From the NCBI GenBank assembly GCA_001001045.1, contig LCIL01000002.1, positions 9,127 to 73,126 on the forward strand: 64,000 bases of DNA. The letters are read 5' to 3'. The notes under the pieces are model-generated. The model was not told the origin of the DNA and ran no database searches. It saw nothing but the letters and a program-made list of their open reading frames with translations. Shown here one piece after another: positions 4,456 to 12,496 of this stretch. Both the position numbers and the translations under genes were made by a program. Position 1 is the stretch's first letter, and the number at the start of each line of letters is the position of its first letter. The DNA comes from Candidatus Woesebacteria bacterium GW2011_GWA1_44_23 (lineage in GTDB: Bacteria > Patescibacteriota > Microgenomatia > UBA8517).

Positions 4456-4980
4456 ATGCTTGATGTCTCAAGAATTGAAATGGGGCGAATAAAAGTGGAT
4501 TTAGAAAAAATCGATCTTGTCCAAATAGCCAGAGAAATCTATGAGGATTATCTCCTGCAAGCCAAGGACGAAAATATAAACCTGGTCAGTCATGGTATTG
4601 AAAAGAACAAAAAGGTTATCGTAAATGCCGATAAGGAAAGACTTGTTCAGGTATTTTCCAATCTAATCGGAAACGCACTTAAATTCACACCCAAGGGAGG
4701 GCAAATAACTATAACTCTTAAAACCGACGAAAAAGATGCCGAAGTCACAGTTCAGGACACAGGAATCGGCATAAAAGAAAATGATATACCTAAACTTTTT
4801 GCAAAGTTCGTACGACTCAACGATTCACATATTTCTGTTCCCAGCACGATGGGTACAGGTCTGGGTCTTTATATTAGTAAAAAACTGTTAGCGCTTTTTG
4901 GAGGAAAAATTTGGGTAGAAAGTAAATATGGGAAAGGTTCTAAATTCATCTTTACCTTACCCGCAATTGAGGCGTCATAG
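4456..4980 (+). CDS. Sensor histidine kinase, C-terminal fragment (HATPase_c); same gene as 3464..4441 in another frame
   Basis: LVNDMLDVSRIE (end of HisKA), N-box NLIGNALKFT, G1 DTGIGI, G2 GTGLGL. Confidence 0.7.
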   Translation: MLDVSRIEMGRIKVDLEKIDLVQIAREIYEDYLLQAKDENINLVSHGIEKNKKVIVNADKERLVQVFSNLIGNALKFTPKGGQITITLKTDEKDAEVTVQDTGIGIKENDIPKLFAKFVRLNDSHISVPSTMGTGLGLYISKKLLALFGGKIWVESKYGKGSKFIFTLPAIEAS

Positions 4981-6216: not shown

Positions 6217-7179
6217 TCAACCCTCCTCTTCCAGATATTTCAAAGCCTCCATGGCAGCAATACACCCCATCCCGGCAGAAACCACGGCTTGTTTATATCT
6301 TTTGTCTACAACGTCTCCTGCGGCAAACACACCCTTAACGGATGTGCCGCAATGGTCTGTCTTATATTCTATATACCCTTTTTCATCTCTTTCCAACTTT
6401 CCGGCAAAAATATCGCTATCGGGTTTATGCCCTATTGCCACAAAAAGACCATCAACGATTAGTTCTGATGTTTGCCCTGTTTTATTGTTTTTCAAAATCA
6501 GTTTCTCTAATTTTCCGCTACCCACCGCCTCTTCTACTTCGGTATTCCACAAAATCTTTATTTTTGGATCAGATTTAACCTTTTCCTGCATCGCAGCGGA
6601 GGCCCTGAATTCCTCGCGTCTGTGGATTATCGTCACTTCCGATGCGTATTTTGTTAACACTGAGGCTTCCTCCATGGCAGAGTCTCCCCCTCCCACAACC
6701 GCAACCGTCTTGTCCTTAAAAAACGGTGCGTCGCAGGGGGCGCATGAAGAAACCCCCTTCCCGATCAGTTCTCTGACCCCCGGAGCCGTGAGCCACGCGG
6801 TCAATGCTCCTGTTGTAATAATAATTGACCGGCTTTGATAGGTCTTTCCTCCCGCCGTAATTTCAAACGGTTTTTTTGTTAAATCTACCGATTCAACACT
6901 AACTTCTTGGAACTGTGCTCCAAACCTTTGCGCCTGAATCCGCATATCCTCCATTAATTTTGGTCCCAGTACACCTTCGGGAAAGCCGGGAAAATTATCA
7001 ACTGTCGTTGTTAGCATCAACTGCCCTCCCCAAACTTCGCCGCCAAGAATTAAGGTAGAGGCTGCGCCTCGGGTGGTATAAATGGCAGCTGTAAACCCGG
7101 CAGGACCAGAACCAATGATAATAGTGTCCCAAGGGCCTTCGGGACTGGTCGGTTTTGGAGCGAAAATCTGAGTGTCCAT
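6217..7179 (-). CDS. trxB: Thioredoxin-disulfide reductase
   Basis: FAD motif IIIGSGPAGFTAAIY, redox CAPC motif, second dinucleotide motif AVVGGGDSA; 320 aa. Confidence 0.85.
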   Translation of the reverse strand: MDTQIFAPKPTSPEGPWDTIIIGSGPAGFTAAIYTTRGAASTLILGGEVWGGQLMLTTTVDNFPGFPEGVLGPKLMEDMRIQAQRFGAQFQEVSVESVDLTKKPFEITAGGKTYQSRSIIITTGALTAWLTAPGVRELIGKGVSSCAPCDAPFFKDKTVAVVGGGDSAMEEASVLTKYASEVTIIHRREEFRASAAMQEKVKSDPKIKILWNTEVEEAVGSGKLEKLILKNNKTGQTSELIVDGLFVAIGHKPDSDIFAGKLERDEKGYIEYKTDHCGTSVKGVFAAGDVVDKRYKQAVVSAGMGCIAAMEALKYLEEEG

Positions 7180-7251: not shown

Positions 7252-7512
7252 CTAAACTGCAGCAGGTGGAGTGCCGGTAGGCGGCATTCCGGTTCCTGCA
7301 TCTCCTGTTCCCTCAGCCGGCACAACGGGCGGGGCTACTGGCTGCTCTTCAGGAGCCTGCTGAGGCTCGGGGATAGGAGTCATTGTCGGTTCTTCTGGTA
7401 CCTCTACCGGTTCTACCGGAGGGGTGGTAACTGGTGCCGGAGGTGTCGGTACACCCACATTGGAATCGGCTACCGGGACAGTTGGGTTGACTGGGTTTTG
7501 TGTTGGATCCAT
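7252..7512 (-). CDS. Low-complexity Pro/Thr/Val/Glu-rich small protein, translationally coupled to trxA
   Basis: TAATG stop/start overlap with trxA; 86 aa; locally GC-rich; may be spurious or a linker-like secreted peptide. Confidence 0.3.
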   Translation of the reverse strand: MDPTQNPVNPTVPVADSNVGVPTPPAPVTTPPVEPVEVPEEPTMTPIPEPQQAPEEQPVAPPVVPAEGTGDAGTGMPPTGTPPAAV

Positions 7513-7838
7513 TAACTAGTCACCCCCTTTTTCATTAATTGCTCAAAAGCTTCTTTTCCTGAAAAACCAACCTGACGCCCTATCTCCTTGCCACCCTTAA
7601 AAAGAATGGTTGTGGGAATAGACATAACGCCGTACTTCTGGGGCGAAGCAGGGTTTTCATCAATATTTAATTTTACAACAAGCACTTTATCTTTGTAAGT
7701 CTCGGAGAGCTCCTCCAAAACCGGTGCCGCCATCCTGCATGGCCCGCACCATGCGGCCCAAAAATCCACAAGGACCGGCAGCTTATTGCCAAGAACCTGT
7801 GTATCAAAATCTTTATCCGTAATATTTCCCGCTGACAT
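7512..7838 (-). CDS. trxA: Thioredoxin
   Basis: WCGPC active site; 108 aa. Confidence 0.9.
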
Positions 7839-7930: not shown

Positions 7931-9925
7931 TTATATTTTGATCGTCCTTAGTCTTAGTGAATTACCCACAACCGAAATTGAGGAGGCAGCCATAGCCCCT
8001 GCCGCCAGCATGGGATTAAGAAAACCTAAAACAGCAACGGGAATGAGGACAATGTTGTATCCAAATGCCCAGAAAAGATTCTGTCGTATTACATTCATCG
8101 TTTTTTCAGACAGGTTGATGGCTGAGGAAACACTACCTATATTTTTATTAAGAAGGGTAATTCCAGCAGACTCTATCGCGACATCCGTTCCGCTTCCCAT
8201 TGCAATGCCGACATCGGCAGAGGCCAAGGCGGGCGCATCATTGATTCCGTCTCCCACAAACGCGACAGAATCGAATTCTTTTACTTTCTCGGCTTTTTCA
8301 CCCGGCATCACTTCGCTCAAGACATTTTTAATGTGAGCTTCTTTTGCGATTTTTTCCGCACTCAATCGATTGTCTCCTGTGACCATCCAAACGCTTATTT
8401 TCTTTCTATTTAAACCATCTACGACTTCGGCGGCATTCGGTTTTAAACTGTCCTCGATTTGAAACTCTGCCAAAAGTTTCTTACCCTCAAAAAGCGATAC
8501 CCCCGGCCTGCCCAGATAATATTTCATACCGTCTACCATTCCTTCAATGCCTTTGCCCTCAATCGCTCTAAACCCTTTGACTCGGCCGAGGGTTATGTTT
8601 TTCTCTTTCGCGGCACGGAGAATAGCCTCCCCGATCGGGTGTTCAGAATAGGACTCCAAGGATGCTGCGATCCGTAAATATTTCTTACTAACTGGATTGG
8701 TCAGGACAGGTTTTCCCAAAGTCAGTGTTCCCGTCTTGTCAAAGATAATCGTTTTGATTTTATTCAAAAGCTCAAGACTTTGAGCATCTTTAACCAAAAT
8801 TCCACTTTTCGCTCCCCTTCCTACAGCAACCATGATCGCGGTGGGGGTGGCAAGTCCCATCGCACACGGGCAGGCGATAATCAAGACCGCTATGGCATTT
8901 GTTAATCCAAAAACAAAAAAAGTAATGAGCGCAATAACAAGAACCGCCGGAACAAAATATGAAGAAACACTATCCGCAAACCTTTGGACATCGGCTCGGC
9001 TTCCTTGAGCCTCAGTCACCATTTTGACAATCTGTGAAAGCATTGTATCTTTACCGATTTTTGTAACTTCAAAAACCAGGCTCCCGTTTTTGTTAATTGT
9101 GGCCCCGGTAACTATGTCCCCTTTTTCTTTTTTGATCGGCATCGGCTCACCCGTTAGCATTGATTCGTCAACGTAACTGGCGCCTTCAACAACTACCCCG
9201 TCGGTTGCGATGCTTTCTCCAGGCCGCACTTTAACCAAATCCCCTACGGAAAGTTCATTTATCGGTATTTCAACATACTCACCCCCCTGTAAAACGGATG
9301 CCGTTTTGGGAGTTAAACCCAACAGCTTTTTAATAGCGTCGGATGTGTGCGATTTTGCTTTAGCCTCCAAAAACCTCCCTAGAAGAATCAGGGCAATAAT
9401 CACGGACGAGGTGTCAAAATATGAGGGCCCGCCGGCGACAAAAGTATAAATAGAATAAAAATAGGCGGCTGAAGTCCCGATGGCAACAAGGGTGTCCATA
9501 CTGGTTGATCTATTTCTGATTCCACTCCATGTAGCCAAATAAAATTCACCGCCCGCCCAAAACTGGACAATTGTGGCAAAAAGTAATACCAGATATTTGA
9601 ATAGTTCCGGAAGAGCGATAAATCCGCTGGCCATAACAAACCCGGCCAATATCAATGAGGCCGTCACTTTAACTTTCAAATCCGCGAGTTTTTTCTTTTT
9701 TTCTTCTTCAATATTCTTGCCGACTTTATATCCAAGACTTTCAATGGCTTCTTCGATGGCGCCCTCTTTAATTTTTCCGTCGCGTAACTCCAGGTATGCC
9801 GTTTCATTTCCGTAATTCACACTGGACGAAACTACTCCCGAAACCTTCGAAAGTTTTTTCTCTATTAATTTTGCGCAGGAAGCGCAGTGCATTCCGATAA
9901 CGGGAAAGGATTTTTTCTGTATCAT
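7931..9925 (-). CDS. copA: Copper-translocating P1B-type ATPase
   Basis: N-terminal HMA GMHCASC; CPC transmembrane motif CPCAMGLATP; DKTGTLT phosphorylation site; GDGINDAP. Confidence 0.9.
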   Translation of the reverse strand: MIQKKSFPVIGMHCASCAKLIEKKLSKVSGVVSSSVNYGNETAYLELRDGKIKEGAIEEAIESLGYKVGKNIEEEKKKKLADLKVKVTASLILAGFVMASGFIALPELFKYLVLLFATIVQFWAGGEFYLATWSGIRNRSTSMDTLVAIGTSAAYFYSIYTFVAGGPSYFDTSSVIIALILLGRFLEAKAKSHTSDAIKKLLGLTPKTASVLQGGEYVEIPINELSVGDLVKVRPGESIATDGVVVEGASYVDESMLTGEPMPIKKEKGDIVTGATINKNGSLVFEVTKIGKDTMLSQIVKMVTEAQGSRADVQRFADSVSSYFVPAVLVIALITFFVFGLTNAIAVLIIACPCAMGLATPTAIMVAVGRGAKSGILVKDAQSLELLNKIKTIIFDKTGTLTLGKPVLTNPVSKKYLRIAASLESYSEHPIGEAILRAAKEKNITLGRVKGFRAIEGKGIEGMVDGMKYYLGRPGVSLFEGKKLLAEFQIEDSLKPNAAEVVDGLNRKKISVWMVTGDNRLSAEKIAKEAHIKNVLSEVMPGEKAEKVKEFDSVAFVGDGINDAPALASADVGIAMGSGTDVAIESAGITLLNKNIGSVSSAINLSEKTMNVIRQNLFWAFGYNIVLIPVAVLGFLNPMLAAGAMAASSISVVGNSLRLRTIKI

Positions 9926-10185
9926 CTTTTTTTAAGTACCTGCATTACCTCCCCTATTGCCTCTTTGCTGTCTCCTTTTTTAATCGAATCGGAAACGCAA
10001 GTTTCCAGATGATTTTTCAAGACTTCATTATCTGCTTTTTTTAACGCGGCCTGAACCGCTAAAGATTGATGTACGATGTCTATGCAGTATTCGCCACTTC
10101 CAAGCATTGATATCACTTTATCCAAATGGCCTCTGGCTATTTGGTATCTATGTAGAATACCTTTTTTGGTATTGTTATTAGGCAT
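9922..10185 (-). CDS. csoR: CsoR/RcnR-family metal-sensing repressor
   Basis: DUF156-like helical protein with the Cys...His...Cys ligand pattern (YCIDIVHQ...ETC); overlaps copA start. Start placed at the internal ATG at 10185; the ORF track runs to 10251. Confidence 0.7.
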   Translation of the reverse strand: MPNNNTKKGILHRYQIARGHLDKVISMLGSGEYCIDIVHQSLAVQAALKKADNEVLKNHLETCVSDSIKKGDSKEAIGEVMQVLKKR

Positions 10186-10197
10186 TTGCGTTTTGGT

Positions 10198-10214
10198 ATC
10201 CCCCCGGGGGGGAT
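10198..10214. promoter_or_regulatory. 17-bp G/C palindrome ATCCCCCC-G-GGGGGGAT, candidate CsoR operator
   Basis: Near-perfect inverted repeat in the csoR / membrane-protein divergent region, abutting a TTGACA -35 box. If csoR starts at 10251 it lies in coding sequence instead. Confidence 0.4.
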
Positions 10215-10242
10215 TGACAATAGTATAAATTAGCTTTATCCT
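10214..10242 (+). promoter_or_regulatory. Candidate sigma70-like promoter TTGACA-17-TATCCT for the + strand copper operon
   Basis: TTGACA at 10214-10219, 17-nt spacer, TATCCT at 10237-10242, ATG at 10253 (near-leaderless). Confidence 0.35.
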
Positions 10243-10252
10243 AAATGTCAAG

Positions 10253-11254
10253 ATGGCTAACTACTGGCTAGCATTTATCACAGGACTTACGACCGGCGGA
10301 ATTTCCTGCTTTGCGGTTCAGGGAGGGCTTTTAACCTCCGCATTGGCAACAGAGGAAGAAATAAAAATTTCAAAAAGCCTTAGAGCCCGCGCTCTGGTTG
10401 CCTTTTTGATTTCAAAATTAATTGCCTATACCCTACTTGGATTTGTTTTGGGATTTGTTGGAAAAGGCCTTATTGTCACACCCAAAGTCCAAGGATGGCT
10501 ACAAATACTAATAGGTGTTTTTATGCTTCTTACTGCGGCGAATCTTGCCAATCTTCACCCCTTTTTCCGACATTTCGTGATTACCCCCCCAAAATTTATA
10601 TTCAAAATTTTACGAAACCAAACAAGAGTAAAGTCGTTTTTTACTCCGATTTTCTTGGGAGCACTAACAATATTTATTCCCTGTGGAGTGACTCAGGCAA
10701 TGATGCTTTTAGCCGTTTCCGCTTCCAACCCTGCCGTCTCCGCGTCAATTCTTTTTGCCTTCATTTTAGGAACAATTCCGGTTTTCTTTGTGATCGGGAT
10801 GGCGGCTAACGAACTTCTCAAACGCAAGAGCCTCACAATTTTGGCGGCTTTGGTTGTAGCAATCTTGGGAATTATTTCCATAAATAGCGGCCAGGTACTA
10901 CGCGGGTCCGCTCACACGATTCAAAATTACTGGAAAGTCTCTTTCGCAACTGAAAGGCAGGGCAGACTCGCCCCGATTAACTCCGGAGTCCAGGAGGTTA
11001 CAATTGACGTCTTATCGCGTGGCTATAAGACAGATGTAACTACCCTCAAACTGGGGGTACCGGTAAAACTAACCCTCGTCACAAACGGCGTAACAAGTTG
11101 TGCAAGGGCTTTTACAATTCCTGACTACAATCTTTTTAAATTGCTTCCCCAGACCGGAACCGAAGTAATAGAATTTACCCCAGAAAAGACTGGGCTTCTG
11201 ATTTTTACTTGCAGTATGGGTATGTACAGCGGATCGTTTAACGTAATTGAATAA
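10253..11254 (+). CDS. Polytopic membrane protein with conserved intramembrane Cys pair and C-terminal cupredoxin-like/Met-rich domain; putative copper handling
   Basis: TM helices with GGISCFAVQGG and IFIPCGVTQ; soluble C-terminal domain ending FTCSMGMYSG; sits in the csoR-copA-copZ cluster. Confidence 0.5.
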   Translation: MANYWLAFITGLTTGGISCFAVQGGLLTSALATEEEIKISKSLRARALVAFLISKLIAYTLLGFVLGFVGKGLIVTPKVQGWLQILIGVFMLLTAANLANLHPFFRHFVITPPKFIFKILRNQTRVKSFFTPIFLGALTIFIPCGVTQAMMLLAVSASNPAVSASILFAFILGTIPVFFVIGMAANELLKRKSLTILAALVVAILGIISINSGQVLRGSAHTIQNYWKVSFATERQGRLAPINSGVQEVTIDVLSRGYKTDVTTLKLGVPVKLTLVTNGVTSCARAFTIPDYNLFKLLPQTGTEVIEFTPEKTGLLIFTCSMGMYSGSFNVIE

Positions 11255-11274
11255 GCAAAGCTTTTAAGAATATC

Positions 11275-11466
11275 ATGAAAAAAACATACAAAATCAAAGG
11301 AATGGACTGTCCAAGTTGTGCTTCGTTGCTGGAGCTAGATCTGGAGGACGCTGGCGTAAAGGCTAAGTGTTCCTACTCAAAATCAACCGTGGAGGTTGAA
11401 GAAGATGGAAATTTTGTTAATATTAAAAAGGTCGTCGAAAAATCCGGCTACAGTATTACCCAGTAA
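11275..11466 (+). CDS. copZ: Copper chaperone (HMA domain)
   Basis: GMDCPSC metal-binding motif; 63 aa. Confidence 0.85.
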   Translation: MKKTYKIKGMDCPSCASLLELDLEDAGVKAKCSYSKSTVEVEEDGNFVNIKKVVEKSGYSITQ

Positions 11467-11909
11467 TGTGTCCAGTTTGCACGGTTACCGTTATTGCAGG
11501 CCTCGGAATATCCCGGTTATTGGGAATTGATGATTTGATTACCGCAATTTGGATTGGCGGGCTAATTTTGTCACTCTCCTTTATTACGATTGACTGGATT
11601 AAGAAGAAGTGGCCAAAGTTAAAATTGAAGTACTACTATTTTCCGACCTTTATTTTGATGTATTTATTTGTGTTCATTCCATTTAAATTAAATGGCACAA
11701 TTGGCATTGTCCGTAACACCATGTGGGGCGTGGACAAAATTATTTTAGGAATAATAATCGGCTCGGCTGCCCTACTTCTAGGGGTCCTGACAGATAAGTA
11801 TCAGAGGGTGAAATTCAAAAAAATCTTTTTTCCGTTCCAAAAAGTATTCTTTCCCGTTCTGGCATTAATCATAACAAGCCTGATTTTTTACCTTATTACT
11901 GCTGGGTGA
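11466..11909 (+). CDS. Small membrane protein starting MCPVC (N-terminal CxxC), putative metal-binding membrane protein
   Basis: Start overlaps copZ stop; 4 predicted TM helices; CPVC at residues 2-5. Confidence 0.5.
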   Translation: MCPVCTVTVIAGLGISRLLGIDDLITAIWIGGLILSLSFITIDWIKKKWPKLKLKYYYFPTFILMYLFVFIPFKLNGTIGIVRNTMWGVDKIILGIIIGSAALLLGVLTDKYQRVKFKKIFFPFQKVFFPVLALIITSLIFYLITAG

Positions 11910-11959
11910 GCGCATGACCAGCGGTTGATAGCATAACCGAAACGCCTTAGAATATACAC

Positions 11960-12496
11960 ATGGTTAAGAATTACAAGGATCTTGTTAAGAAAGTTGAAGG
12001 TGTCACCAAAACTGGCAAGGTTGATTTATCTTCCAGTGAAGACCTCTCTATAGCCATCATGAATCTGATTTCGATTGAAGAACATTTGTTTTTTACCGCC
12101 CAAAAAACCGAAAAGCCTCAGTATCTGGATATTCTAAATGAAGTCCGGGGAATGAGAACAGGACTACTTAGAAAGATCATCAAAGATTATGAAGGCGAAG
12201 TCTGGTGTATTAGTAAACATTTGCTTGCCGCCTCGATGCGCCTGATGGAAGTCGGAACAAAAGAAGAAAAGAAGGGAAACAGAAAAGAGGCTTGGGAACT
12301 GTTTCAAAAATCTTTCAGGCTTTATTCCCTTTTCTGGGCAATAAATCTTAAGGTGGTCGATATCGGAGACGTCCCGATGGATAACGGGGATATCAACTTT
12401 ATCGGTGAGAAGGAAGTTAAACTCAAAGGGACCTCTTCTCCCCTAGACAAACTCACCGAGATTTTCAAAAAAGCAGTGGATTGCTGCAAAGAATAG
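11960..12496 (+). CDS. Hypothetical protein
   Basis: 178-aa ORF, no recognised motif. Confidence 0.45.
   Translation: MVKNYKDLVKKVEGVTKTGKVDLSSSEDLSIAIMNLISIEEHLFFTAQKTEKPQYLDILNEVRGMRTGLLRKIIKDYEGEVWCISKHLLAASMRLMEVGTKEEKKGNRKEAWELFQKSFRLYSLFWAINLKVVDIGDVPMDNGDINFIGEKEVKLKGTSSPLDKLTEIFKKAVDCCKE

Follow-up and report, generated by a model that had tools for sequence, protein, structure and literature searches.

In a 64-kb stretch of DNA from a bacterium of the candidate phyla radiation (CPR), Candidatus Woesebacteria bacterium GW2011_GWA1_44_23 (contig LCIL01000002.1; this whole stretch is hereafter the window), we identified a copper island in which a single operator of the Cu(I)-sensing repressor CsoR appears to serve two overlapping divergent promoters, so that both operons would be derepressed by cytoplasmic Cu(I). 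We put the probability of this reading at about 0.9. The predicted operator is a 17-bp palindrome, ATCCCCCCGGGGGGGAT, at 10198-10214, with 8-nt arms around a central G, and it lies in the 67-bp intergenic gap between csoR (minus strand) and the gene for a 333-aa membrane protein (plus strand). The minus-strand operon encodes CsoR and the ATPase CopA. The plus-strand operon would form a cell-envelope copper-handling module, the core of which is the 333-aa protein together with a cytoplasmic HMA chaperone. An initial annotation of the window had placed the palindrome at the same position. Genes of the island were read on the window, and their domains were called with Pfam and NCBIfam profiles.

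A conserved operator motif at the 5′ end of csoR

The palindrome alone is statistically unremarkable: the window contains four perfect 8+8 palindromes, and 3.0 ± 1.8 were expected from Markov-1 simulations. Runs of six or more G are found only five times in the 64 kb, and it is composition, together with the location next to csoR, that makes the site unusual. We therefore do not base the assignment of a CsoR operator on palindrome statistics, but on conservation of the motif in related loci. For this comparison, island genes were placed by tblastn on 80 loci encoding relatives of the 333-aa protein (38-71% identity), which come mostly from Patescibacteria and otherwise from Chloroflexota. The motif ATCCCC-N5-GGGGAT, allowing at most one mismatch, occurs 38 times in the 769 kb of these loci compared with 1.45 ± 0.97 in Markov-1 simulations (∼26-fold enrichment), with 32 of them at the 5′ end of csoR. 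Similar palindromes are thus present at orthologous cop promoters, where the initial annotation had suggested searching for them.

When the sites were aligned, the left arm began with ATC in 33/33 and the right arm ended with GAT in 32/33, while the five central bases varied from CCGGG to TATAG. Fixed arms around a variable centre are what a dyad recognised by a protein would show, rather than a coding segment or an RNA stem. The motif accompanies csoR in both gene arrangements, i.e. between divergent operons or at the head of a co-directional csoR-copA-(333-aa gene)-copZ operon. In lineages without the motif, the canonical form TACCCC..GGGGTA occupies the same position (L010, L020, L042, L046, L049, L050 and L068). 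This phylogenetic footprint backs the earlier likening of the palindrome to the G-tract operators of CsoR and strongly supports that 10198-10214 is the operator of the adjacent CsoR, in the layout known for type-2 sites.

In Streptomyces lividans, the type-2 CsoR consensus ATATACCCCTNAGGGGTATAT has conserved arms (ATACCC and GGGTAT) separated by an N5 spacer, and base swaps in its TAC/GTA dyad resulted in binding that was no longer detectable (PMC3902906). The type-2 operators of S. lividans csoR/copZA, Bacillus subtilis copZA, Listeria and Staphylococcus share with the window site a 6-N5-6 G/C-tract pseudo-palindrome, overlap with the promoter of an autoregulated csoR/cop operon and a Cys-His-Cys Cu(I) site in the regulator. 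They differ from it in their arms, which are ATACCC/GGGTAT there and ATCCCC/GGGGAT here (i.e. the TAC/GTA dyad has become ATC/GAT), and in that one site in the window serves two overlapping divergent promoters.

Two sets of related loci showed other palindromes. At 4553-5000 of L007 and in the same region of L023, the csoR-copA genes are missing. Divergent from the 333-aa homologue are genes for a DUF134 helix-turn-helix protein, the N-terminus of which is rich in Cys, and for a metallothionein-like peptide of 53 aa that is also Cys-rich. The promoter region carries a perfect palindrome, ATGAATATATATTCAT, and a different regulator may control the module there. Three C5..G5 palindromes upstream of the 333-aa homologue in L080, a Bellilinea metagenome-assembled genome, were considered as operators and rejected as tandem tRNA-3′-end-like copies. 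They belong to three tandem 62-bp copies of a tRNA-3′-end-like fragment (GGTTCGAATCCCGCCCTCCCCGCCA...) at 4700-4900 of that locus, which resemble integration-site remnants.

The CsoR repressor and the start of its gene

The csoR gene (9922..10185, minus strand) encodes an 87-aa protein that matches PF02583 (Trns_repr_metal/DUF156) with 76.1 bits (cutoff 22.8; E 2.8e-21). Its closest solved relative is Mycobacterium tuberculosis CsoR (2HH7, E 1.4e-16), in which the Cu(I) ligand fingerprint x-Cys-His-Cys consists of Cys36, His61 and Cys65. The YCID and NHLETC segments of the window protein align to YCVD and NHLETC of 2HH7, which gives Cys34, His59 and Cys63 as the corresponding residues. By this alignment, the protein has the Cu(I) ligand triad and falls into the Cu(I)-sensing CsoR subgroup.

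An open reading frame (ORF) that starts from a TTG at 10251 reads across the palindrome, and the initial annotation had considered that csoR might truly begin there and the palindrome be coding. This is not what we found. Both the Pfam model and 2HH7 align from residue 7 of the 87-aa form and so the ATG at 10185 is most likely the start codon, rather than the TTG at 10251. Moreover, the distance between the site and csoR falls into all three classes modulo 3 among the orthologues, and the palindrome is therefore predicted to be non-coding. Together with the long ORF, the chance-level frequency of 8+8 palindromes in the window is what speaks for the site being no protein-binding operator at all, but a G/C palindrome that arose by chance, a coding stretch of an extended csoR, or an RNA hairpin or terminator. 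We consider this very improbable, given the enrichment of the motif and its attachment to the csoR 5′ end in related loci, the pattern of arms and centre, which is that of DNA recognition and not of codons or a stem, the spacing that is not kept modulo 3, a CsoR homology confined to the short form and the absence of a T-run after the site on either strand.

Two predicted overlapping divergent promoters

Directly after the palindrome, the initial annotation had proposed a TTGACA-17-TATCCT promoter for the plus-strand operon. We confirmed this predicted promoter at 10214..10242 (TTGACA at 10214-10219, a 17-nt spacer and TATCCT at 10237-10242) and found that it is conserved in relatives. Its -35 box shares one base with the operator. 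Since its -10 box ends 10 nt ahead of the ATG of the 333-aa gene, the mRNA of the plus-strand operon is probably close to leaderless. On the minus strand, the csoR-copA operon has a predicted promoter of its own at 10222..10251, which was absent from the initial annotation: TTGACA at 10251-10246, an 18-nt spacer and TATACT at 10227-10222. With 11/12 matches, it is closer to the consensus than the plus-strand promoter.

Short distances between -10 boxes and start codons recur in these loci. In the window, -10 boxes end 10 nt before the ATG of the 333-aa gene (10237-10253) and 6 nt before that of a 178-aa ORF further downstream (11948-11960), and csoR is preceded by a comparable arrangement in L042, L046 and L049, which suggests that leaderless or near-leaderless mRNAs are frequent.

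As predicted, the two promoters overlap completely, and the operator would occupy about +1 to +17 of the csoR transcript and touch the plus-strand -35 box from upstream. The sequence GGGGATTGACA, i.e. the right arm of the operator fused to TTGACA, recurs with a TAT(C/T)CT-like -10 box in L002, L005, L024, L025 and L026. In the closest loci the order of elements is kept: the right arm with TTGACA, then AGTATA (the minus-strand -10), then the plus-strand -10 and then TGTCAA (the minus-strand -35), which abuts the ATG of the 333-aa gene. Elsewhere, the -35 and -10 boxes of the csoR promoter flank the operator (L001, L022, L028 and L054), or the right arm of the operator runs directly into TATAAT (L015, L030, L032, L033 and L039). 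Repression by occlusion would be possible from every one of these positions. Because the operator lies inside two overlapping divergent promoters, apo-CsoR bound to it would shut off both operons, and binding of Cu(I) at Cys34, His59 and Cys63 would release the repressor.

Gene content of the island

The island exceeds the 9922-11909 interval given in the initial annotation. It includes copA (7931..9925, minus strand), the ATG of which overlaps the stop codon of csoR (ATGA). The product is a P1B-1 Cu(I)-exporting P-type ATPase with a single N-terminal HMA domain: it matches TIGR01511 with 608 bits (cutoff 397), E1-E2_ATPase and HMA domains are present, and its translation holds the CPC, YN and MxxSS motifs (IIACPCAMG, FGYNIVLIP and AMAASSIS). 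CsoR and CopA are a standard cytoplasmic Cu(I) export pair.

On the plus strand, the 333-aa gene (10253..11254) is followed by a copZ-like gene for a 63-aa HMA protein (11275..11466) and by a gene for a 147-aa membrane protein starting M-CPVC (11466..11909), the start of which overlaps the copZ stop codon (TAATG). An ORF at 11960..12496 (plus strand), encoding a soluble 178-aa protein, is probably also part of the island and the final gene of the plus-strand operon.

Three minus-strand genes lie 3′ of copA, and their membership of the island is uncertain: trx (7512-7838), the product of which has a thioredoxin Pfam match, a Pro-rich ORF (7252-7512) and trxB (6217-7179). A separate promoter-like site for trx lies at 7909-7880. 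The Pro-rich ORF, located between trx and trxB, encodes 86 aa of low complexity and its start overlaps the trx stop codon; a similar Pro-rich ORF is found at the equivalent position in L007 (3888-4178).

A DsbD_2-type membrane domain fused to a CupA-type cupredoxin

The 333-aa protein is a fusion of a DsbD_2/UreH-like transmembrane domain (residues 7-207; PF13386, 92.6 bits, cutoff 24.9) and a CupA-type cupredoxin domain (residues 243-327; Cupredoxin_1, PF13473). Over residues 8-192, DsbD_TM (PF02683) also aligns, at a sub-threshold 18.2 bits (cutoff 27.1; E 0.0016). NCBIfam has no model for this protein, nor for the 147-aa or 178-aa proteins, and a sequence search of the PDB with the transmembrane domain alone returned nothing at E up to 10. 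With the profile of the whole 333-aa family, only three PDB sequences matched, and the top two matches were Streptococcus pneumoniae CupA (2MRY/4F2E, E 8e-12) and the N-terminal metal-binding domain of the S. pneumoniae CopA (4F2F, E 4e-10). Cys283 and the Cys320-Ser-Met-Gly-Met segment align to the Cys and CGMNM of CupA. In agreement, the AlphaFold2 model has a cupredoxin domain with a predicted local distance difference test (pLDDT) score of 73-90, and Foldseek gave target-normalised template modelling scores of 0.84 to 4F2F and 0.88 to 4F2E. The initial annotation had described a cupredoxin-like CSMGM domain and proposed structure prediction of 10253..11254. The domain is real, but it is no unknown fold, since it is a homologue of the S. 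pneumoniae CupA and CopA metal-binding domains; and the prediction was confident for this domain only, as the transmembrane part (modelled from a 16-sequence alignment) has a pLDDT below 50 and is unusable.

The paired intramembrane cysteines noted at the outset are Cys19, in helix 1, and Cys144, in helix 4 of a six-helix domain. Both are invariant in 78 homologues, as are Gln23, Cys283, Cys320, Met322 and Met324 (each 100% conserved), and the four Cys and two Met are also kept in the homologues of Tsukamurella, Deinococcus, Streptomyces and Longilinea. A predicted cytoplasmic loop is invariant at His102-Pro103 and Pro112-Pro113. Homologues of the protein number in the thousands. The mean number of Lys and Arg residues in the 78 sequences was 12.5 in loops 1, 3 and 5 compared with 0.9 in the N-terminus and loops 2 and 4. 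Because of this positive-inside bias in a domain with six helices, both termini and the cupredoxin domain are predicted to be outside the cell. The protein is named "UreH-like transmembrane domain-containing protein" in UniRef and "sulfite exporter TauE/SafE family protein" by NCBI and JGI. The "sulfite exporter" label is probably a misnomer, as nothing in our analysis supports it.

Streptococcal CupA is anchored in the membrane, and its partners are CopA and a cytoplasmic repressor, CopY (PMC5646241). The cupredoxin fold and the Cys...Cys-x-Met-x-Met ligands of the window domain are shared, residue for residue, with CupA and the CopA metal-binding domain (4F2E, 2MRY and 4F2F). The settings differ: CupA has a single N-terminal anchor and is cytoplasmic, whereas the window domain is C-terminal to six helices and predicted to be outside; CupA is under the control of CopY, whereas the window protein is predicted to be under CsoR; and the window protein has an HMA chaperone as its partner, whereas S. 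pneumoniae has none. Judging from these homologies, the statement that CupA is confined to a few streptococci (PMC5646241) does not hold at the domain level. A genuine single-anchor CupA of 132 aa (C...CGMNM) is encoded beside copA at 2137-2535 of L003.

The X-CPxC family and the 178-aa ORF

The small MCPVC membrane protein reported after copZ was confirmed as the 147-aa product of 11466-11909. It has no Pfam, NCBIfam or PDB relative and belongs to an unnamed family, here called X-CPxC, for which a profile search of 1.84 billion cluster representatives recovered 431 clusters at 50% identity. AlphaFold2 predicts five helices for the window protein (mean pLDDT 83). Most members of the family have a signal peptide of ∼25 residues with an AxA cleavage site immediately before X-CPxC (e.g. 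...ALA|VCPIC, ...ALA|HCPLC and ...ISA|MCPVC). Around 20 members are fusions, in which a secreted glutaredoxin- or thioredoxin-like CxxC domain and two helices precede the CPxC domain, and in L003, L007 and L020 the CPxC gene directly follows a gene for a membrane-anchored thioredoxin-fold CxxC protein. The 147-aa protein has Lys-rich loops at residues 45-53 and 110-124. From the cleavage sites, the fusions and the Lys-rich loops, we predict that CPxC is the mature N-terminus and lies on the outer face. The window protein lacks a signal peptide and starts at the equivalent position, M-CPVC; this is the common form among its close relatives.

A CPxC paralogue is located inside the csoR-copA operon in L003, L006, L010, L016, L018, L019 and L029, and the family is therefore repeatedly tied to cop genes. 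Besides the CupA described above, the csoR-copA operon of L003 (2137-4693) encodes several further proteins: a DUF1573 protein with a CMC motif, a signal-peptide-bearing CPxC paralogue, a 299-aa secreted protein with PCCG..C.H and a DUF5676 membrane protein.

About 15 loci have both the 178-aa ORF and the CPxC gene. The ORF stands between the operator and the 333-aa homologue in L010 and L020, and for this reason it probably belongs to the plus-strand operon in the window as well. Its product is highly conserved, with more than 8000 homologues and no Pfam or PDB match. It carries an invariant Trp-Cys and, at its C-terminus, DCC(K/R)E, and may have a role that involves thiols or a metal.

An HMA protein is the constant partner of the fusion

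The 63-aa HMA protein of the window matches PF00403 with 26.1 bits (cutoff 24.8), carries GMDCPSC, has no signal peptide and scores under the NCBIfam CopZ equivalog cutoffs. By motif scan, at least 54 of 77 loci have an HMA gene after the 333-aa homologue, usually 0-30 bp apart, and tblastn adds cases. Longilinea arvoryzae also has the 333-aa homologue and HMA gene, with no copA or csoR within 5 kb.

Three plasmids extended this picture. The Tsukamurella plasmid (L081) has the order MerR-type regulator, P-type ATPase, module, HMA, merA and multicopper oxidase, with CcdA and TlpA genes nearby. In the Deinococcus plasmid (L082), the module is close to merB and a MerR-family regulator. Streptomyces pFRL6 (L083) has the module by a P-type ATPase, two CcdA genes, CopC, and MerR-type and ArsR regulators. 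As far as gene neighbourhoods tell, the conserved unit is thus the DsbD_2-CupA fusion with the HMA protein, in soft-metal resistance islands of four phyla (Patescibacteria, Chloroflexota, Deinococcus and Actinomycetota).

The initial annotation had regarded the membrane proteins of the operon as unusual, uncharacterised partners of the cop genes. In agreement, the 333-aa and 147-aa families both recur beside cop genes, and we found no characterisation of either, nor of any DsbD_2-cupredoxin fusion, in a literature search that was largely without subscription journals. HMA-DsbD_2 membrane proteins (COG2836) have already been predicted computationally in the CsoR regulon of gut Firmicutes (PMC4938975); for these and other UreH-like relatives, the same search yielded no copper characterisation.

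Possible Cu(I) hand-over or electron relay across the membrane

How the module might handle copper is less certain than its regulation. We tentatively favour a thiol-mediated hand-over of Cu(I) across the membrane, at a little under even odds, over a relay of reductant. Cu(I) would leave the CxxC of the cytoplasmic HMA protein by thiol ligand exchange, pass to the intramembrane Cys19 and Cys144 of the DsbD_2/UreH-like domain and finally bind, on the outer side, to the CupA-type Cys/Met site in the tethered cupredoxin. A second thiol site on that side would be presented by the X-CPxC protein, which may protect thiols or act as an acceptor of Cu(I). Both the direction of transfer and the identity of the transferred species as Cu(I) are themselves part of what we infer. 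We favour Cu(I) for several reasons: the constant partner over four phyla is an HMA protein and not a thioredoxin fold; genuine CcdA and TlpA are encoded in the same Tsukamurella and Streptomyces islands, where a second reductant conduit would be redundant; the Tsukamurella order of ATPase, module, HMA and merA resembles merT-merP-merA; and the domain family includes metal transporters, as UreH proteins are secondary nickel transporters (PMC2667541).

The UreH transporters and the HMA-DsbD_2 proteins of gut Firmicutes share the transmembrane domain family with the window protein, by its UniRef name and by PF13386. For the COG2836 proteins, regulation by CsoR is likewise predicted (PMC4938975), and they fuse an HMA domain where the window protein fuses a CupA-type cupredoxin. 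The His/Asp residues that we take to be the metal ligands of UreH are replaced by Cys in the 333-aa protein. MerT-MerP and MerTP fusions follow a shared logic, in which a soluble metal-binding domain, a membrane Cys pair and a cytoplasmic thiol acceptor act by ligand exchange. We detected no sequence homology between MerT-MerP and the window module. In contrast to MerT, which imports metal, the window module would serve detoxification or export, judging from its control by CsoR.

With the same regulation, the DsbD_2 domain could instead move electrons, from thioredoxin through Cys19/Cys144, to keep the outer Cys283/Cys320 reduced; it might also reduce the X-CPxC and glutaredoxin-like proteins, and the outer site could then remain able to bind Cu(I), or could reduce Cu(II), during oxidising copper stress. 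The protein would then be a single-polypeptide analogue of DsbD beta-gamma or ScsB-ScsC. We take its transmembrane domain to belong to the same Pfam clan as DsbD, CcdA and ScsB, with which it shares a six-helix core and one essential Cys in each of helix 1 and helix 4. Like DsbD gamma, its Cys-bearing C-terminal domain is predicted to be outside the cytoplasm, and the Scs system shares the link to copper stress. The alignment to PF02683 in addition to PF13386 fits this family, but the former match is sub-threshold and the latter above threshold, and the motifs GGxSCxAVQGG and IPCGVTQ set the protein apart from DsbD and CcdA; the SC of its helix 1, at the place of what is presumably PC in CcdA, also counts against an electron transporter. 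In about 15 of the 80 loci, trx/trxB are found no more than 5 kb from the module, in two arrangements, and in L027 they come directly after copZ. We gave this linkage less weight as support for a relay, since a single inversion of the cop block separates the two arrangements, which may therefore reflect inherited synteny, and since trx comes with a separate promoter-like site. Secreted thioredoxin-fold CxxC proteins also adjoin or are fused to the CPxC family in sister operons. In DsbD-type proteins, the fused domain is a thioredoxin fold, whereas here it is a cupredoxin with an HMA protein as the constant partner, and two Actinomycetota plasmids have genuine CcdA and TlpA in the same islands. 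Copper-induced Scs systems (ScsB/ScsC) provide a precedent (PMC10907172, PMC3322552), and C74/C111 of CupA reduce Cu(II) and need an unidentified reductant, for which thioredoxin was suggested (PMC5646241). On balance, we consider an electron relay somewhat unlikely, though it comes close behind the hand-over of Cu(I). It is appreciably less probable still that the cupredoxin is cytoplasmic and a chaperone to CopA, with the six helices as an anchor or a self-fed exporter. The characterised CupA and CopA metal-binding domains do act on the cytoplasmic side (PMC5646241), and genuine single-anchor CupA is encoded next to copA in related loci, as in L003. However, the distribution of Lys and Arg over the 78 sequences places the termini outside, a mere anchor would not need invariant intramembrane cysteines, and the N-terminal domain of the window CopA is an HMA domain rather than a cupredoxin, which leaves a cytoplasmic CupA domain without its cognate docking partner.

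Several points weigh against our reading of the island. For its regulation, the two promoters are consensus matches only, and repression by CsoR is deduced from the operator and the ligand triad of the protein. For the hand-over of Cu(I), the predicted topology depends on the positive-inside rule and on clan-level homology to DsbD, the AlphaFold2 model of the transmembrane domain is too unreliable to place Cys19 near Cys144, and a secondary Cu(I) exporter beside CopA has no clear energetic rationale. Moreover, one Cys in helix 1 and one in helix 4 are also the hallmark of the CcdA/DsbD electron transporters, thioredoxin-fold CxxC proteins and trx/trxB recur in related operons, and the cysteine pair of CupA is redox-active and dependent on a reductant (PMC5646241).

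Implications for copper handling in Patescibacteria and beyond

A CsoR operator motif with good support is now available for Microgenomates and other Patescibacteria, organisms without genetics. Its arms suggest that the TAC/GTA dyad, which was considered necessary, can be replaced by ATC/GAT. In addition, CupA-type Cu(I) sites are predicted to range far past streptococci and to be present on the outer side of the membrane as well.

Cultured carriers of the module are available in Longilinea (L. arvoryzae), Levilinea (L. saccharolytica), Streptomyces (e.g. sp. F12), Tsukamurella and Deinococcus (e.g. sp. QL22), and the question of whether it carries Cu(I) or electrons is therefore directly testable. 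More doubtfully than the hand-over itself, we propose that the fusion and its HMA partner represent an unrecognised class of thiol-lined conduit for Cu(I), and possibly for other soft metals, that is independent of P-type ATPases. If so, a widespread class (Patescibacteria, Chloroflexota, Deinococcota and Actinomycetota) would currently carry the wrong annotation of sulfite exporter, and the X-CPxC family would be its outer-face thiol partner in CPR bacteria.

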